The translations under genes were made by a program, and so were the position numbers. Of a stretch of DNA of 50,362 bases, positions 15,198-38,472 are shown in pieces. The DNA is from a virus, in UHGV virus genome UHGV-0113347, one strand, 5' to 3'. A model generated the notes under the pieces. The model had not been told where the DNA came from. It saw only the letters and a program-made list of their open reading frames with translations, and ran no database searches. Positions within the stretch are counted from its first letter, which is position 1. The number at the start of each line of letters is the position of its first letter.

Positions 15198-15483
15198 TAG
15201 CACTCCACCCAGGCGTGCTGAATGTCAGATATAATCGGCATACTCAAATCACTCCTAACGATATGAGTCATCACCAGAAAATCAGGATTAATGCGCCGGA
15301 CTCTTCCCGGCTGTCACACCGAATCGCCAGGATGGTGAATCCCTTTACCCGAGAAACAACAAACGGTGGCTTGCACATTCCGGCTACCTGGTTCGTTGCC
15401 TGAGCTAGGGGCAAGGTTCCCCCCTTTTAACGTCACCAGACCGCTAACGACGCATGTGCCAGACGCCGTGTTACAACCAAATA

Positions 15484-15559
15484 TGGTGGCCCCTACCGGA
15501 CTTGAACCGGTGACCGTGCGATTATGAGTCGCCAGCTCTAACCACTGAGCTAAAGGGCC
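15484..15559 (-). tRNA. tRNA, anticodon CAT (Met or lysidine-Ile)
   Basis: 76-nt cloverleaf GGCCCTT..GCTC-AGTGGTTA-GAGC..CTCATAA..GGTTCAAGTCC..AGGGGCC-A-CCA. Confidence 0.8.
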
Positions 15560-15586
15560 GGATTACTGCCAATTTTGCTTACGCTT

Positions 15587-16414
15587 TTATTTCACCGGAA
15601 CAAACGGAACAGCGGTATTACTGGTCATATACTGCGGTAATGTACCGTTCCATTTGTTGATCGCTTCCAACTCCATAACACCGGGGTTCTGGCGCAGAGC
15701 TTCACCACGTAAACGAATGGCATCAGCTTCGGCCTGGGCTTTTGTGCGAATAGCATCAGCCTGTCCGGCAGCTTCCGCGCGCAGCATGTTGGCCTCTGCT
15801 TCACGTTGTTTGACCTCTTGCTCGCGTTGCAGGGTTTTTTGGTTTGCCGTGACTTTGGCGTTAATACTGTCAATAACTGTTGGCGGGTATTCTGGCTTAC
15901 CTACATAAGAGAGGCTCATCACCTGAATGCCGATTGGCGTCATTTCTTCCTGAATGTCTTTAAGGGCTGCATCAAGCAATTCAGATTTGCCACCGTCGAT
16001 AAATTTGTCGGTGGTCATTTTGCTGGCTAACCGGTTCAGAGCATCTGCAACCTTCTGGCGTAGATCGGTATCAGTAATATCATCTACACCTTTGCGATAG
16101 GTCTGAAATACCGTTGTGACTTTTGCTGGATCAACCTTGTAGGCTACGCCGATGTGGTAACCAATGGTTGTTCCGTCGCTCATCTGGAAGCTGAACGGCT
16201 CATCGTATGTCTTCATTTGCTTAAAGGTCGGGAAGATATAAACTTCAGTATTCAAGCCTGTCCAGTAGCGACCAACGCCAACTACTTCACCGATACCTTT
16301 ATCATCCCCCAGCTTATTTACTTTGATCCCTACGTTACCTGGCTCTACCCGATCGCATCCGGTCAGACATAAAGAACCCAAAATAATCGCTGCACTAATC
16401 AACGTTTTTTTCAT
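15587..16414 (-). CDS. plp: SPFH/prohibitin-domain lipoprotein (P1 Plp-like)
   Basis: Signal peptide with lipobox LTGC; SPFH-like middle region; C-terminal E/A/Q-rich coiled coil. Confidence 0.6.
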   Translation of the reverse strand: MKKTLISAAIILGSLCLTGCDRVEPGNVGIKVNKLGDDKGIGEVVGVGRYWTGLNTEVYIFPTFKQMKTYDEPFSFQMSDGTTIGYHIGVAYKVDPAKVTTVFQTYRKGVDDITDTDLRQKVADALNRLASKMTTDKFIDGGKSELLDAALKDIQEEMTPIGIQVMSLSYVGKPEYPPTVIDSINAKVTANQKTLQREQEVKQREAEANMLRAEAAGQADAIRTKAQAEADAIRLRGEALRQNPGVMELEAINKWNGTLPQYMTSNTAVPFVPVK

Positions 16415-16631
16415 TAATTAATTTCCTGGTTTTTTCACGAAAAAAGACTACTGCGAAAGCCGGGTAAATGAGCGCGAGAAGGACTCCCAACAATACAAGT
16501 ATTGTGCTGTTAGATGAGATCATATTTGGCAAAAGCCAAACATACAGAACCAGTGACACAATCAAACAGAGGACGGCATAAATATATAACCGCACCCATA
16601 GCGTTCGACATTTGTTCGGATTGTTCTGCAT
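16395..16631 (-). CDS. small membrane protein (2 TM)
   Basis: 78 aa with two hydrophobic helices; overlaps start of lipoprotein gene. Confidence 0.45.
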   Translation of the reverse strand: MQNNPNKCRTLWVRLYIYAVLCLIVSLVLYVWLLPNMISSNSTILVLLGVLLALIYPAFAVVFFREKTRKLINEKNVD

Positions 16632-17482
16632 CCTCTCACTCCATTATTTAACGAATAAAAAAGCTGCGGTGCCGGGTGCCTCCCGGTGTCCTTTGGCTGG
16701 TTATCCACCGTGGACGGGGAAACAAGGAGAAATGAATGGACTGATATAACCATTTCCCCGCGTGCGCTTAGCCGCATTCACCGCAACGGAAAGAGCATTC
16801 TTGGTGGACCTGTAGATTGGGATATGAACCCGTTACAGGAGAATGCTCTTACCTGTTACGTGCTCCGTTTCGTGGAGCTAACGGCGGGTGATCGGGCCGC
16901 ACCAGGCTGGACTTATTTCAGCGTTATGCTCATGCCAGAGAATCAAACTGTGATGGTCGGTGCTGAACTCCGACACAGGGTTGTAGCAAGCCCCGCAAAG
17001 CGCGCACTACTGTAGTTGCGGCACATCAGCCTGTGCATTCACCACAATGTTGAGAACACTGGTTGTCACGCTGCAACGCAACATTTATTCGTAGATTGGG
17101 ATATGACCCCGTTACGCCAGTGTTCTCAACGTTGTAGTGCCGGTTACGGTTCCGGCCAGGCCTCTTCCTCAACGGGGTGTTCTCCATACGGACTACCGTT
17201 TATTGGTCGTTCCTGCGGTTTATGTTGTGAAGCCAGATGCTTATCTTCTGGTTGCTTCAAAGAGCTGCACTTCATCACAACGGTAAGAGCACTCGATGCA
17301 TTTAAGCCAAGCCCCATAAGGGAGAATGCCCTTACCTGTTGTGTTGTGATGACCGGTGCTGATCTCCGGCTTGCGGTTATTTCAGACTCTCACGGGCGTT
17401 TAATTGCCCCGCCGAACAGCTCTTTTCCGCAATAGCTGCAATGTCTTTCGCGCATCAGCCTGCGCATTCATCACAACGGTAA

Positions 17483-17546
17483 GGGTACTTCGTAGGGATT
17501 CGAACCCTCTGCCAAGCTCGGCGATCTCCGACGTCGCAAAATACCC
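17483..17546 (-). other. tRNA-like element lacking an anticodon arm (possible tRNA pseudogene or tRNA-derived RNA)
   Basis: Minus strand: 7-bp acceptor-like stem GGGTATT/AGTACCC, D-arm-like GCGA-cgtcggaga-TCGC, canonical T-arm AGGG-TTCGAAT-CCCT, no room for an anticodon arm, no CCA. Confidence 0.3.
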
Positions 17547-17559
17547 TTACCTGTTGTGC

Positions 17560-17635
17560 TGGTGCCGATTAACGGACTCGAACCGCTGACATCCTGCTTA
17601 CAAGGCAGGCGCTCTACCAACTGAGCTAAACCGGC
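17560..17635 (-). tRNA. tRNA-Thr (anticodon TGT)
   Basis: 76-nt cloverleaf GCCGGTT..GCTC-AGTTGGTA-GAGC..CTTGTAA..GGTTCGAGTCC..AATCGGC-A-CCA. Confidence 0.8.
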
Positions 17636-17637
17636 AT

Positions 17638-17713
17638 TGGCGATGGTGGATGGATTTGAACCATCGACCCGTTGATTAACAGTCAACCGCTCTAACCGCT
17701 GAGCTACACCATC
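17638..17713 (-). tRNA. tRNA-Asn (anticodon GTT)
   Basis: 76-nt cloverleaf GATGGTG..GCTC-AGCGGTTA-GAGC..CTGTTAA..GGTTCAAATCC..CACCATC-G-CCA. Confidence 0.8.
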
Positions 17714-18381
17714 ACTTGCCGGGTACGTCTCCGGCGAGGGCTTCCACCTCCGTATGCTTTTCGGCGCACCGCGCCCTGGCTGCAATTCGGTAACAGGGGA
17801 TGCATAACCCTGGCTTCCAGCGTGATTAGCGCTTTCAGCATGACGGGATATACCCGTAAATTCGTGGAACTGTACCCAAAGTGCTGTTAAGCACCGCTGT
17901 TACGCTGAAAAGAAGACGCAACAGGAAAGGACGCTGACCAACAGATGGCCCCTTCTCGTTCATCTGGTTAATCACACCAGCGCCCTTACCTGTTGTGCCT
18001 CCCCGTTCCCTAATACACAGACGGGGACACTCTGCGGTCGATTTTTTGACGGGGGACGACTCATACCCCGTGGCGTCTGGCTTCTTAGGCCGCTACCATC
18101 ATCAGATCATCGTTTGCATTTACTTTAATGGTCAGTTTCTAAACCGCCGCAAAGTCGCTAACCATGACGAAAACCCTGAAAAAAACGCCCACCCGAAGAT
18201 GGGCAAACTGGAAGCTCGTAACGCACTTCGGTGTTGCCACTTAGGCGTATGGTCAACCTGGCAACTCGGCGTCATGAGGGGGAAGGAGTCACTACCCCGC
18301 CATACTTGCCGCCGCGCCTGTCGCGGCTAACAGCTAAATCGCTCTATAAATCACGATTCATTGAGGCGATATTACACTAAT

Positions 18382-18398
18382 AAATTTATTAGAGCAAT
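18382..18398 (-). promoter_or_regulatory. C1 operator (perfect consensus) with overlapping inverted partner at 18370-18386
   Basis: AAATTTATTAGAGCAAT on plus = exact reverse complement of ATTGCTCTAATAAATTT; partner ATTACACTAATAAATTT 15/17. Confidence 0.7.
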
Positions 18399-20407
18399 AT
18401 TGCTATAACGTCATGAGCAACACCTCGAGTGTCCCCCTTACAAGACACAGAACGTCTGGCAAAAAGAGGTTCCACTCTGAAGCCACTGTCCTGATAAAGT
18501 TCTCTGATGTTTGGCGCGCCACTGTTAGTAATGAGAACCTTTGCACCTCGGCGATGAGCATCCGTCAACAGAGACGCCAGGCGTTTTTGCTCTTCAAACT
18601 TAAAGTCATGACCGGAATAGTTCGTGAATCCCTCTGTATTTGGGAGCGGTTCATACGGCGGATCGCAAAAGATGACATCTCCTTCTCCGGCAGCTTCAAT
18701 CACCGCAGCAAAATCACCACATACAAACTCAGAACGCCCTTCCGCACCAAGGAAGGCTTCCATCTCCTGCAATGGGAAATACGGAGTTTTATACTTCCCA
18801 TAACCGACATTGAACTCACCGGCTTGGTTGTAACGCGTCAATCCGTTAAAACAATGTCGGTTCAGGAACAAAAACGCCGCTGCGCGATGTAAATCATCAT
18901 AGACTTGTTTGTTAAACGCATTCCGTACTGCCAGGTATCCTTCCTGCGTGTTGTAGTCCTGGAAGAAACGATGTGCCAGAGTGATAAGTGAATGCGCCTC
19001 GCGTTGCAGAGTCTTGTAAAAGTTAATCAGGTCAGCATTCACATCATTTAGCAGATTTTCCTGGTATCCGGCATTCATGAAGACAGCTCCGCCACCAACG
19101 AAAGGCTCAATCAGGCGCTTCCCTTCTGGCAAATAGCGAAAGATTTGTTCCAGAACACCAAATTTTCCACCAGCCCATTTGAATATGGACCGTTCGAATT
19201 CTGCCGCTGGTTTAACTTTTCGCTCTTTTGTTTCACTCCCTTCCTTCTGCCGACATGCAGCCTTGGCAATCCGATCGCCAATCCAGCGCATTACTGGTAT
19301 CGCCATACTATTGCCGATCGCTTTGTAACGCGGTCCGTCAGCTGCAAGCATCGCGGCCTCTTCTTCGCTCAAATCAGGATAGTTTTTGCGAAGGTATGCC
19401 AGTTCATCTGAAGAAACTTTTTTACGCTTTTCCGTAGGGATCAATGTATGTCCATCAGGAAAACCTTGCAGCCTTTCACATTCGACAGGGATAAGACGGC
19501 GCATTCTACCGTCGACGAGCAATACAATTGGTGCTTCATGGTTACATGTCAAAGTTGGTGCCGAATTATCGGTTTTTATCTCAGCCCCTCCTTGCCCATG
19601 TGCCATGGCAACTATGTTTGTATCATCGCAAGATCTGATAGCGATGTTTGAAGTATATCTGGTAGTTTCCTTCCCCTCGCCTCTGCTCGGCGCAATATTC
19701 CGGCGCACGCCTTCGAACTCAAAAAGTACCGTTGCGGGATCGAGGTCTGTTCGAGCACTTGCGACAACAAACACGCGTCGGCGTCGTTGTGCCACTCCGA
19801 AGTATTGGGCATCAAGGATTCTCCAGGCCACCTTTCGCTGCGGTCCATAAATACAACCACACTGCGGCCACTTTGGAGCATGGCAACCGGTTTTGCCATC
19901 CCACCGCCAGAACGCGTTACTTTTTCCTGATTCAGGTCGATCACCTGGTTCAAATGGCGCATCTTCTCCAGCCAATCCGGCAAGGAAACATCCGAAGGCG
20001 TTATCTGCCGATGACAGGACTCCTGGGACATTTTCCCAGACGATAACTGTCGGTTTGAGGAAGGACTCAGACCGTTTGTCGTCAATTGCATTTGCAAGCT
20101 CCACATACTTCAAAGTTAGCGCGCCGCGTTCATCATCAAGCCCACCACGTAAGCCCGCGATACTGAATGCCTGACAAGGCGTACCCCCGACGAGCACATC
20201 AGGGGATTCGATTTCCCCAGCCAGGACTTTTTTGGCAAGTTTTGTCATGTCGCCAAGGTTGGCGACATGGGGCCAGCGGTGCGCAAGAACGGCAGATGGA
20301 AAAGGCTCGATTTCAGCAAACCACGCCGGACGCATACCCAACGGTTCCCAGGCAATACTCGCGGCTTCAATTCCACTGCAAACAGATCCATAGCACAGCT
20401 CTTTCAC
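18389..20407 (-). CDS. dmt: bifunctional DNA methyltransferase: N-terminal C5-cytosine MTase + C-terminal Dam-like N6-adenine MTase (P1 Dmt-like)
   Basis: N-terminal [21 protein letters not shown] (PCQ), ENV; C-terminal KWAGGK and DPPY. Confidence 0.8.
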
Positions 20408-33983: not shown

Positions 33984-34580
33984 ATGGCTGTGATTCCAAT
34001 GTCGTACTCCCCGGGTACTGTCGCTCGTCGATTTTCGATCCTGGACGGAGTTACCATCCAGGGTGTGCTTTACCAGGTTATATGGGATTCCAAAACCCCA
34101 TTTGCAGCTGTAATAGAGGCTGCGCCTTCTGTTATCGATGGTGATATGCGCCATAAGGTTGTCGCTACTCTTGAACTTCAACGTCGCCCGCAGCTTGAAG
34201 GCGTACTGGTAAGGAAGTTCTGGGAGGATAGCGATGTTGCCCAGATTGAAGGTATCGTGGTTGATGGAACCGTCCGGGATGTCGGTTTAGCTACTTTTGT
34301 TTACGAAACCGTAGCCTCAAAAGCTGGTGTTGTTTTGCTCAGTGATAATGAGCAATACGAAGGTGGAAAAGCTCTTTGGCAACACATCGCCCGTCGCTCT
34401 TCCGAGCTAAAAGTGTTTATCCTCGACACCGATGCCGCTCAGTATTACCCGTTTGACGGCGAACGTGTTTGCTATGACGGGGTAAGTATTCCTGAATCCG
34501 AGATATGGAGTGAACACCCAGATCGAAGTAAGCATGGGGTTGTTCTGGTCGCTGAATCCATAATTGGAAAGGCGGCATAG
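33984..34580 (+). CDS. hypothetical protein (198 aa from internal ATG)
   Basis: ATG at 33984 after AAGGGGG; track start TTG at 33948; AT-rich promoter-like upstream. Confidence 0.4.
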   Translation: MAVIPMSYSPGTVARRFSILDGVTIQGVLYQVIWDSKTPFAAVIEAAPSVIDGDMRHKVVATLELQRRPQLEGVLVRKFWEDSDVAQIEGIVVDGTVRDVGLATFVYETVASKAGVVLLSDNEQYEGGKALWQHIARRSSELKVFILDTDAAQYYPFDGERVCYDGVSIPESEIWSEHPDRSKHGVVLVAESIIGKAA

Positions 34581-34762
34581 CAGTAAAAAATTCCTTGCTC
34601 CTAAAAAGGGGAGAGGGCTAATCTACGTATGCTAAGCATAGATATGGCCTCAGATTAATGTTAAGCGTCTTGCAGGACGCGTAATGTTATCTGGGGCTTT
34701 CTTCTATCTGCTTGTCGGGTAATGCCTGAAGCAGATAGCCTCAAGCACCCGCAACGATTGTA

Positions 34763-38159: not shown

Positions 38160-38214
38160 AGTTACGGCCTCACTAACAGGTTTAACAACCTGCTACCCGC
38201 TGTCAAACAGGTGG

Positions 38215-38295
38215 CAGGACGTGACAGGGTTGACAGACTGGCGTTAGTGAAACCAGCAGGCCGAAGCCTCCCCATCACGCCCCACCATAATTCGG
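38215..38295 (-). ncRNA. c4: candidate c4-like antisense RNA (approximate coordinates)
   Basis: Between operator and icd; contains CCAGTCTGTCAACCCTGTCAC complementary to two TTTGACAGC motifs (38199-38208, 38367-38377) on the same transcript. Confidence 0.3.
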
Positions 38296-38472
38296 GCGTA
38301 ACGCGGTTTACGGACACAAAAATACCGCAATATCGGAAATCTGCGGTTGTCCGCACTAACATTCAGGCTGTCAAACCCGGTCGCAGAATTTGCTAAGACG
38401 GTGGAACTATAAGCCTGAACGATTAAAAGGTCAATATGATGCGAAAAGATAGCATTCGCGACTTAAAAATAC

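Follow-up and report, generated by a model that had tools for sequence, protein, structure and literature searches.

What is encoded at positions 16640-18381 of the virus genome UHGV-0113347, where two tRNA genes stand among short repeats and two open reading frames (ORFs) run antisense across them? We addressed this question within the window, i.e., the whole 50,362-nucleotide (nt) stretch of DNA under analysis. The window represents a P1-like phage-plasmid, and the region itself is 98-99% identical to vB_EcoM-813R1, RCS47 and P1. Judging by the reference annotation of P1, it forms the leader of the ban operon, which is repressed by C1 and read on the minus strand: the promoter Pban and the operator Op72 are annotated at its right end, with dmt beyond, while trnA, trnT, a few small genes, a third tRNA and ban follow downstream on the same (minus) strand. 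We consider it probable that the region is a non-coding RNA island within the ban leader, in which a C1-repressed polycistronic precursor would be processed into two tRNAs, several tRNA-shaped small RNAs (sRNAs) of the STnc100/PasD superfamily and a transfer-messenger RNA (tmRNA)-like RNA, with hairpin arms doubling as recombination joints.

Central to this proposal is a family of elements that we call E. Their consensus reads 5' GUGGUG-AAU-GCGCA[GGCUGA]UGCGC, followed by 10 to 140 variable nt and by GCCGG[AGAUCAGCA]CCGGC-CACCAC 3'. The ends pair over up to 9 bp, with covarying outer pairs, and enclose two 5-bp hairpins with complementary loops (GCUGA/UCAGC). Along the strand the order is that of a tRNA: an acceptor, a short linker, a D-like arm, a variable part at the anticodon position and a T-like arm abutting the 3' strand of the acceptor. 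Three clear copies (E2, E4 and E5) and one degenerate copy (E3) are found in the region, all on the minus strand and thus in the sense of the ban operon.

A covariance model built from 50 viral E copies of IMG/VR (model R1) was searched against the 50-kb window. The canonical E2 (17342..17478, minus strand; GUGAUG-AAU-GCGCA[GGCUGA]UGCGC ... GCCGG[AGAUCAGCA]CCGGU-CAUCAC) scored 91 bits (E 1e-21), whereas its plus strand scored 7 bits only. E4 (16946..17049, minus strand) reached 69.7 bits (E 4e-16); it was not a seed of the model, and its 25-mer fails the seed-selecting pattern GTGRTGAATGCGCAGGCTGATGCGC. Both its hairpin 1 (GCACA/UGUGC) and its hairpin 2 (GUCGG/CCGAC) are compensatory with respect to the consensus. 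E5 (16657..16788, minus strand), which resembles STnc100 and PasD, was matched at 16788-16662 with 34.1 bits (E 4e-7), and its closing stem is followed by a terminator-like run of six U (16662-16657). E3 (17223..17286, minus strand; repeat D5) is a minimal E-like element in which only the 3' hairpin and the closing stem are recognisable, and its match at 17321-17223 is marginal (12.2 bits, E 0.17). All other matches in the window stayed at or below 12.5 bits (E 0.14 or worse). Across the aligned copies, hairpin 2 shows double changes at four of its five pairs and the outer closing stem occurs as UA (20), GC (6) and AU (2), values that none of 500 shuffles reaches; the E copy of phage D6 also carries compensatory changes in hairpin 1.

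The family extends far beyond P1-like phages. An exact-pattern scan located E in at least 120 viral contigs, and a distant BLAST search matched the 40-nt piece adjoining each hairpin to 153 records of diverse phages. Genomes of 54 species from several proteobacterial classes contain the exact first 25 nt of E, and all 54 loci give an R1 match of at least 47 bits. The hosts include Enterobacterales, Aeromonas, several Betaproteobacteria, Janthinobacterium, Massilia, Undibacterium, Xenophilus and Marinobacterium, as well as Martelella alba and metagenome-assembled genomes of Moraxellaceae, Lysobacterales and Geobacteraceae, an unusually wide range for an identical 25-mer. E is seen most frequently in two settings, immediately downstream of a cI-type repressor and in the interval from Q to the lysis genes. 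E is not strictly tied to tRNAs, since a tRNA lies within 1 kb in only 14 of the 120 listed viral loci; in these 14 the tRNA always has the orientation of E. A copy 96-98% identical to E2 resides in the lambdoid phage mEp460. The rightward early region of this phage also holds an IsrK Hfq-binding RNA (67 bits; locus L005, 4980-5056, plus strand) followed by a C4-like antisense RNA.

The prophage sRNAs STnc100 and PasD have been related to each other by structure in a 2026 preprint (bioRxiv 10.64898/2026.05.13.724894). PasD1 and PasD2 of enteropathogenic Escherichia coli (EPEC) are abundant, Hfq-dependent and Northern-validated, and pair with many mRNA targets (PMC8550237). In a permissive scan, the Rfam model of STnc100 (RF02076; gathering score 47) matched E5 at 16785-16665 with 37.8 bits (E 3.5e-6). 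The validated PasD2 and PasD1, scored from their published coordinates, obtained 41.4 and 37.7 bits, hence also less than 47 and in the same range as E5. Both the Rfam alignment and R1 reveal in E5 the fold that characterises STnc100 and PasD: a (U)GGUG/CACC(A) closing stem, an AAU linker, two hairpins and a variable middle. More generally, E and STnc100/PasD1/PasD2 (EcOnc13) have in common the closing stem UGGUG...CACCA, the AAU linker, the 5' hairpin, the variable middle and a 3' hairpin that borders directly on the closing stem, and they occupy the same niches between Q and lysis genes and next to tRNAs. R1 aligns the closing stem of PasD, at the start of which the mapped 5' end of PasD falls. 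By fold and score, E5 is a new member of a known family and ties the window to validated sRNAs. E2 and E4 differ in that their GGCUGA and AGAUCAGCA loops go along with a sequence that the STnc100 model does not detect at E<=10, whereas in the STnc100-like class the loops are different and lack obvious complementarity. Canonical E is also far more widespread, occurring in several proteobacterial classes and in virulent phages, and here it forms a tandem array interleaved with hairpins and tRNAs in an operon leader, unlike STnc100 and PasD. On this comparison of sequences and folds, E2 and E4 are a sister class of STnc100/PasD that lies outside Rfam detection.

The modules between the E elements explain most of the repeats. 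The preliminary description of this DNA, made from its letters alone, had pointed to at least three repeat families and an inverted repeat within the tRNA region. The repeat finder returned 12 direct families and 10 inverted pairs, among them D1 (four copies of 23 nt), D4 (four of 16 nt), family D6 (25 nt at 96%) and the inverted repeat I1, which is the one quoted there (arms 17040-17062 and 17117-17139, 23 nt, 91% complementary). The repeats are thus real, but they are not free direct repeats: most of them are arms, 5' or 3', of five long hairpins, named H, or conserved ends of the tRNA-shaped E elements. Each H hairpin has a conserved base and a variable tip and runs in the sense of the ban operon. 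Folded as minus-strand RNA the five give -37 to -51 kcal/mol with z scores of -4.7 to -6.3, and 0 of 200 shuffles are equally stable.

H-M1 (17908..17997, minus strand), found by arm motif search, has the base CACAACAGGUAAGGG / CCUUUCCUGUUG followed by a U-rich tract (-50.2 kcal/mol, z -4.8). H-M2 (17469..17558, minus strand; -45.4 kcal/mol, z -5.6) bears a tRNA-like element at its tip. H-M3 (17273..17343, minus strand; -37.8 kcal/mol, z -5.2) has an 89% identical copy adjoining tRNA-Thr in Klebsiella phage 5 LV-2017. H-M4 (17040..17139, minus strand; -51.4 kcal/mol, z -6.3) corresponds to I1 and contains a T-arm-like GGGGUCAUAUCCC in its tip, and H-M5 (16779..16860, minus strand; -37.4 kcal/mol, z -4.7) ends in a minihelix, CCUGUA-ACGGGUUCAUAUCCCAAUC-UACAGG-U-CCA-CCA, which combines a T-arm-like part with NCCA. 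Directly 5' of H-M5 stands a small hairpin, GCUCCACGAAACGGAGC (16862..16878, minus strand), which recurs before H in viral contigs with compensatory variants such as GCCACACGAAACGUGGC and GCCAC...GUGGC (viral loci L011, L014, L029, L047 and L094). The base of H is often conserved as CACAACAGGUAAGRG / CYCUUWCCGUUGUG. Among 150 unique flanks, the sequence directly upstream of E is a 3' helix arm in 118 (median z -2.7), and T-loop motifs occur in 14 H-tip flanks against 0.7 expected, an enrichment of about 20-fold. H comes straight after tRNAs (tRNA-Thr here, tRNA-Ser in D6) and before E or X, the latter being a further module described below. H might have been a mere decayed tRNA gene; this was rejected, as phage D6 has a true tRNA-Ser and an H hairpin in series and H is therefore a separate module. 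A boxA/boxB (nut-like) reading of the H 3' arm and hairpin 1 was also dropped: many H arms have no boxA-like UGCUCUUU, and the modules are also found in virulent phages. Permissive Rfam matches to miRNA families merely reflect the long hairpins.

These hairpin arms, or the positions next to them, are where the differences among P1, RCS47, Ro157c2YLVW, D6 and Klebsiella phage 5 start and stop. P1 lacks 17294-17466; Ro157c2YLVW lacks 17347-17559 and has an additional tRNA-Tyr between tRNA-Asn and tRNA-Thr (locus L003, 2433-2519); D6 has a tRNA-Ser(UGA) cassette between an E element and an H hairpin (locus L004, 1638-1724). Near-identical cassettes are common to unrelated phages such as HC6 and IME11. 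From the position of the breakpoints it follows that the arms also act as cassette joints, and the modules would move between phages as cassettes joined at conserved H arms. Could the repeats then be features of the DNA alone, i.e., recombination linkers or scars at mosaic boundaries or decayed tRNA remnants, with no function as RNA? The breakpoints, the shared cassettes and the tRNA fragments held in the tips, such as the T-arm and CCA of H-M5, all agree with this idea. It does not account for a signal confined to one strand (91 versus 7 bits for E2), for G-U pairs in the stems and compensatory changes in hairpins and pseudoknots, for an orientation that matches the tRNAs in every one of the 14 cases or for the exact 25-mer retained across several proteobacterial classes, and we regard it as improbable. 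Another swap of cassettes is visible between the RNA array and the third tRNA: 15587-16631 (minus strand) encodes a 275-amino acid (aa) lipoprotein-like ORF ('putative serine protease' in RCS47) and a 78-aa membrane-like ORF as in RCS47 and Ro157c2YLVW, while P1 and D6 have tciA/B/C there. The third tRNA (15484-15559, minus strand) has the anticodon CAT and is called tRNA-Met by ARAGORN; its P1 counterpart is annotated tRNA-Ile2 (trnI), presumably lysidine-modified.

Two genuine tRNA genes precede the array of H and E. tRNA-Asn (GTT; 17638..17713, minus strand) and tRNA-Thr (TGT; 17560..17635, minus strand), already placed by the preliminary description between the operator and the lipoprotein genes, were called by both ARAGORN and Rfam (74.5 and 72.9 bits, respectively), and they alone pass the Rfam gathering threshold in the region. 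tRNA-Thr has an encoded CCA, which a single nt separates from the 5' arm of H-M2. The T4 tRNA region is a familiar precedent for such a cluster: there, tRNAs and small structured RNAs arise from one precursor matured by RNase P and other host tRNA-processing enzymes, and some are made without an encoded CCA. The P1-like locus likewise brings together tRNAs and other small structured RNAs, some of them without an encoded CCA, whereas the companions here, E, H and X, are different RNAs and are common to temperate and virulent enterobacterial phages.

The tip of H-M2 (17483-17546) folds as had been described from the sequence, with acceptor-like, D-like and T-arm parts and no anticodon arm. A 7-bp acceptor-like stem (UAUUUUG/CGAAGUA, with two U-G pairs) stands on a stem of about 17 bp; a D-like hairpin comes next, then a 12-nt linker at the position of the anticodon arm, then a canonical T-arm, AGGGUUCGAAUCCCU, with a UUCGAAU loop. 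The 3' end is C-CCU, not NCCA, and neither ARAGORN nor the Rfam tRNA model (RF00005, at E<=10) calls a tRNA here. D-arm/T-arm tips of this kind recur in H hairpins right after or before X in non-P1 phages. A possible relation to the Y RNA-like YrlA (RF02553) was discarded: its sole match (25.6 bits, gathering score 69) spans both true tRNAs and is an artefact, and the tip has the normal order, D then T, whereas a YrlA type would be permuted with the T-arm before the D-arm. A closer parallel is offered by the mycobacteriophage DS6A, which encodes a tmRNA-like RNA consisting only of a tRNA-like domain (TLD), with an acceptor stem, a D region and a T-arm and with the anticodon position empty (Hudson et al. 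2014, PMC4131195); a similar TLD-only molecule was shown to inhibit tmRNA, perhaps via SmpB titration (PMC4131195). The H-M2 tip is also phage-encoded and has acceptor, D and T parts with nothing at the anticodon position. It differs from the DS6A RNA in having U3-G70 rather than G3-U70 and CCU rather than CCA, in sitting on a long stem and in showing no similarity to the tmRNA models of Rfam.

The counteraction of tRNA-cleaving defences by phage tRNAs is an established theme, and the preliminary description had suggested that the tRNAs and the tRNA-like element are targets of, or decoys for, anticodon nucleases of the host. The presence of phage tRNA genes and the canonical T-arm of the tip would suit replacements or decoys of this kind. 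Yet the H-M2 tip, the H-M5 minihelix and E all lack the anticodon stem-loop that is the substrate of such nucleases and so offer no loop to cut, and nothing in the window was linked to a nuclease, though none of the tests was aimed directly at nucleases; moreover, the relatives of E (PasD, STnc100) are Hfq-bound, base-pairing sRNAs, and one module is tmRNA-like. We therefore find this explanation very unlikely.

The same stretch might instead encode proteins. Two ORFs of 109 and 139 aa, the upl and plp of P1, lie antisense across the modules (16686..17435, plus strand), are annotated over the repeats in P1 and RCS47 and are both intact in the window, so that the repeats at the nucleotide level could mirror repeated peptide motifs of real small proteins Upl and Plp. 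Translated searches speak otherwise. The ORFs are interrupted by frameshifts or stops in Ro157c2YLVW and in two P1-like loci (L044 and L163); in P1 they are truncated or altered, with a frameshift and a different C-terminus, and in D6 nearly nothing of them is left. P1 plp overlaps tRNA-Thr in antisense, the second ORF begins with TTG straight after the stop of the first, and the same DNA is explained by the minus-strand RNA models. We judge both ORFs to be non-coding and consider the existence of Upl and Plp as functional proteins extremely unlikely. The comparison that the preliminary description had proposed as a possible refutation thus came out in favour of its view that these ORFs do not code, and the minus-strand modules, conserved with compensatory changes across unrelated phages, bear out its suggestion of structured RNAs rather than proteins. 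It had also seen no convincing ORF in the ~0.9 kb after the tRNAs and called the leader free of ORFs; mechanical ORFs of 45-139 aa do exist on both strands, but none is supported as coding.

The leader between the operator and the first tRNA (17714-18381), which had been described as ORF-free, is not empty and holds two further RNA modules. The one nearer to the tRNAs, X (17999..18176, minus strand), resembles the mRNA domain of tmRNA. It has a resume context AUAAAU|GCA, a tag frame at 18117-18088 (GCA AAC GAU GAU CUG AUG AUG GUA GCG GCC UAA, 10 codons encoding ANDDLMMVAA), a UAA at 18087-18085 within a hairpin loop and two H-type pseudoknots thereafter. An in-frame UAG stands eight codons upstream of the tag and, a single CUG aside, no AUG, GUG or UUG lies between, so ordinary translation of the tag is unlikely. 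The tag of E. coli tmRNA reads ANDENYALAA. X is like tmRNA (SsrA) in its resume context (UA at -5/-4 and a GCA resume codon), in its tag frame AN[DE][DEN]xx[LM]x[AV]A, in its stop codon in a hairpin loop, comparable to helix 5, and in the pseudoknots downstream of the tag.

X has matches in 335 phage records, among them those of Ackermannviridae, N4-like and T1-like phages, and a second scan found it in at least 120 viral contigs with 98 unique contexts. The 10-codon frame is intact in all 98, although the stretch is free of indels and this is hence weak evidence when taken alone. There are 18 distinct combinations of tag and stop and 16 tag sequences, all of the form AN[DE][DEN]xx[LM]x[AV][AP] (e.g., ANDDVVLMAA, ANEEMYLAVA, ANDEQFLAVA). 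In alignment A4, the helix 79-102 alternates between GC (17) and AU (15), and double changes occur in pseudoknot 2 (PK2) at three of the five pairs of S1 and at all three of S2 and in PK3 at four of the five pairs of S1. Double-change cells number 98 against 27.8 in shuffles (0 of 500 reach the observed value) and 13-23 in slid controls. After X comes H, and E lies within 150-250 nt in 20 of the 98 contexts. T1-like phages and Moogle have a consensus sigma-70 promoter immediately before X, from which its RNA would start about 10 nt upstream of the module. X, H and E are also found together in Klebsiella phage K751 (Taipeivirus, a virulent member of the Ackermannviridae), in a stretch of more than 3 kb without any annotated feature, along with a full STnc100 match of 48.8 bits, above the gathering score (locus L007, 398-612, minus strand).

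The likeness of X to tmRNA stops at the tRNA-like domain. X has no enclosing domain of this type, and where promoters are visible its transcript would begin about 10 nt before X, unlike tmRNA. Weak matches to Rfam tmRNA_permuted (24.1 bits in the window, 33.1 in IME11 and 27 in HC6) recall two-piece, permuted tmRNA while remaining below the gathering score of 47, and a larger search gave no Rfam tmRNA match at E<=0.01 in ten other X loci. ARAGORN -m reported no tmRNA in 129 X loci, nor was there a flanking tRNA-like domain with G3:U70, T-arm and CCA. The closing stem of E and the H-M2 tip, inspected as possible partners of X, have neither G3:U70 nor an encoded CCA, and in an alifold of 17 X-H-E composites the 5' end of X did not pair with the sequence beyond E to close the structure. 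The X of Moogle matches the resume consensus of ARAGORN; apart from this resume and tag match, the 'permuted tmRNA' called by ARAGORN in this phage is an artefact in which pieces of real tRNAs serve as the tRNA-like domain. In a 2014 survey of 543 RefSeq bacterial viruses, ssrA was found only in mycobacteriophages (PMC4131195), a negative that fits X having been overlooked because it lacks the tRNA-like domain.

By analogy with tmRNA, X may either template or interfere with trans-translation. We put forward as a tentative and rather doubtful idea that X, the following H (often with a D/T elbow tip) and E together would form a phage-borne, topologically rearranged tmRNA analogue, with the tag template and the tRNA-like part side by side rather than nested. 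Phages of at least six families (P1-like, lambdoid, T1-like, N4-like, Ackermannviridae and Felixounavirus) might use it during infection to commandeer or block ribosome rescue, either by appending a tag of their own (ANDDLMMVAA and variants) or by titrating SmpB and stalled ribosomes.

Transcription of the island would start at Pban (18369..18400, minus strand; -35 TTGCTC at 18397-18392, -10 TAATAT at 18374-18369), carried across from the P1 annotation through a 97% alignment. It overlaps the bivalent C1 operator ATTGCTCTAATAAATTT (18398-18382, minus strand; inverted repeat I2), likewise transferred from P1. The other module of the leader is a predicted leader RNA of about 183 nt, D (18179..18361, minus strand), at the end of which the terminator scan found an intrinsic terminator with a stem at 18205-18186 and seven U at 18185-18179. 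Lambdoid, cdtI and Stx2c phages share its segment 18230-18326 at about 81% identity. The 'dicF-like region' of the P1 annotation (a misc_feature, at 18171-18273) overlaps leader RNA D, whereas the Rfam DicF model (RF00039) has no match at E<=10 in 16500-18450. Leader RNA D thus resembles the DicF region of the Qin prophage in its position in a prophage early-operon leader, in being a terminated small RNA and in the segment common with lambdoid phages; on these grounds, the P1 label appears to rest on flanking similarity and not on DicF itself. The remaining 194-nt spacer between H-M1 and tRNA-Asn (17714..17907, minus strand) is conserved only among P1-like phages, and no module was assigned to it.

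Taking these parts together, the following course of events can be envisaged. Once C1 repression is lifted, Pban would transcribe the minus strand; part of the transcription would halt at the leader terminator (~18179) and release the ~183-nt RNA D, and read-through would yield a precursor carrying X, tRNA-Asn, tRNA-Thr and alternating H and E modules, which would end at the terminator-like site of E5 or continue toward ban. This precursor could be matured to stable pieces by host RNases: RNase P would cut at tRNA-like 5' ends, RNase E within the GAAU linkers and RNase III within the H stems of more than 20 bp. By fold homology to PasD and STnc100, the E RNAs may then act as Hfq-associated base-pairing sRNAs, with their specificity in the variable insert and/or the 3' tail.

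The same parts could be arranged differently, with the modules acting in cis only, as attenuators, antiterminator-like signals or RNase III and RNase E sites that tune the supply of transcript to ban and its neighbours. Such a role would suit modules that stand in the leaders of long operons, behind Pban in this phage and behind PL and PR' in lambdoid phages; the terminator-like sites at 18186-18205 and after E5 agree with it, as does the length of the H stems, which befits RNase III. However, many E copies have their own terminator, like stand-alone sRNA genes, and X has its own sigma-70 promoters in the T1-like phages and Moogle. The PasD relatives are abundant Hfq-bound sRNAs with many targets (PMC8550237), and virulent phages carry the modules within tRNA arrays, where no operon follows that they could regulate. 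An exclusively cis-acting function is consequently unlikely in our view.

Several observations nevertheless weigh against the proposed RNA island. A strong terminator lies about 180 nt past Pban, upstream of the modules, and a simple promoter scan of 15400-18500 returned nothing, Pban itself included. E5 stays under the gathering score of STnc100, and E2 and E4 have no match to any Rfam family at E<=10. The loop-loop pairing of E is conserved, but loop 1 was fixed by the pattern used to collect the copies, so covariation is uninformative there, and conservation among mobile phage modules can inflate the apparent support. Finally, the 3' arm of H and the 5' strand of the E closing stem share 3-6 nt, and the two helices thus cannot be complete at the same time.

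Two other RNA loci in the window lie outside this leader. Rfam detected a C4 antisense RNA (68.8 bits) with a1/b1 target sites (47.5 bits) at 38207-38412 (minus strand), the immI immunity region typical of P1/P7, and a sok antitoxin RNA (89.7 bits) at 34576-34750 (minus strand), which implies an addiction module of the hok/sok type. The reference P1 is not known for such a module and uses phd/doc.

The tRNAs, Pban and the 'dicF-like' label of this locus were known already. Judged by Rfam 15 and by the searchable literature, neither the canonical E class nor the grammar of the H hairpins nor X has been described before, and our literature search found no paper on these modules or on any enterobacterial phage RNA that resembles tmRNA. 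For P1, a textbook phage, the reading of the ban leader as an RNA island would correct two hypothetical proteins in the reference annotation, and likewise the annotations of many relatives. Canonical E and X belong to no Rfam family, yet are present in hundreds of sequenced temperate and virulent phages; they are large and apparently unnamed RNA classes. Through PasD and STnc100, abundant sRNAs associated with virulence in EPEC and enterohaemorrhagic E. coli are linked to a much larger family, and this link also suggests how sRNAs of this type arise and move, namely as cassettes joined at conserved hairpin arms. Should X indeed take part in trans-translation, enterobacterial phages would have their first tmRNA-like device, one with a topology new to this type of RNA, and the manipulation of ribosome rescue by phages would become directly testable.

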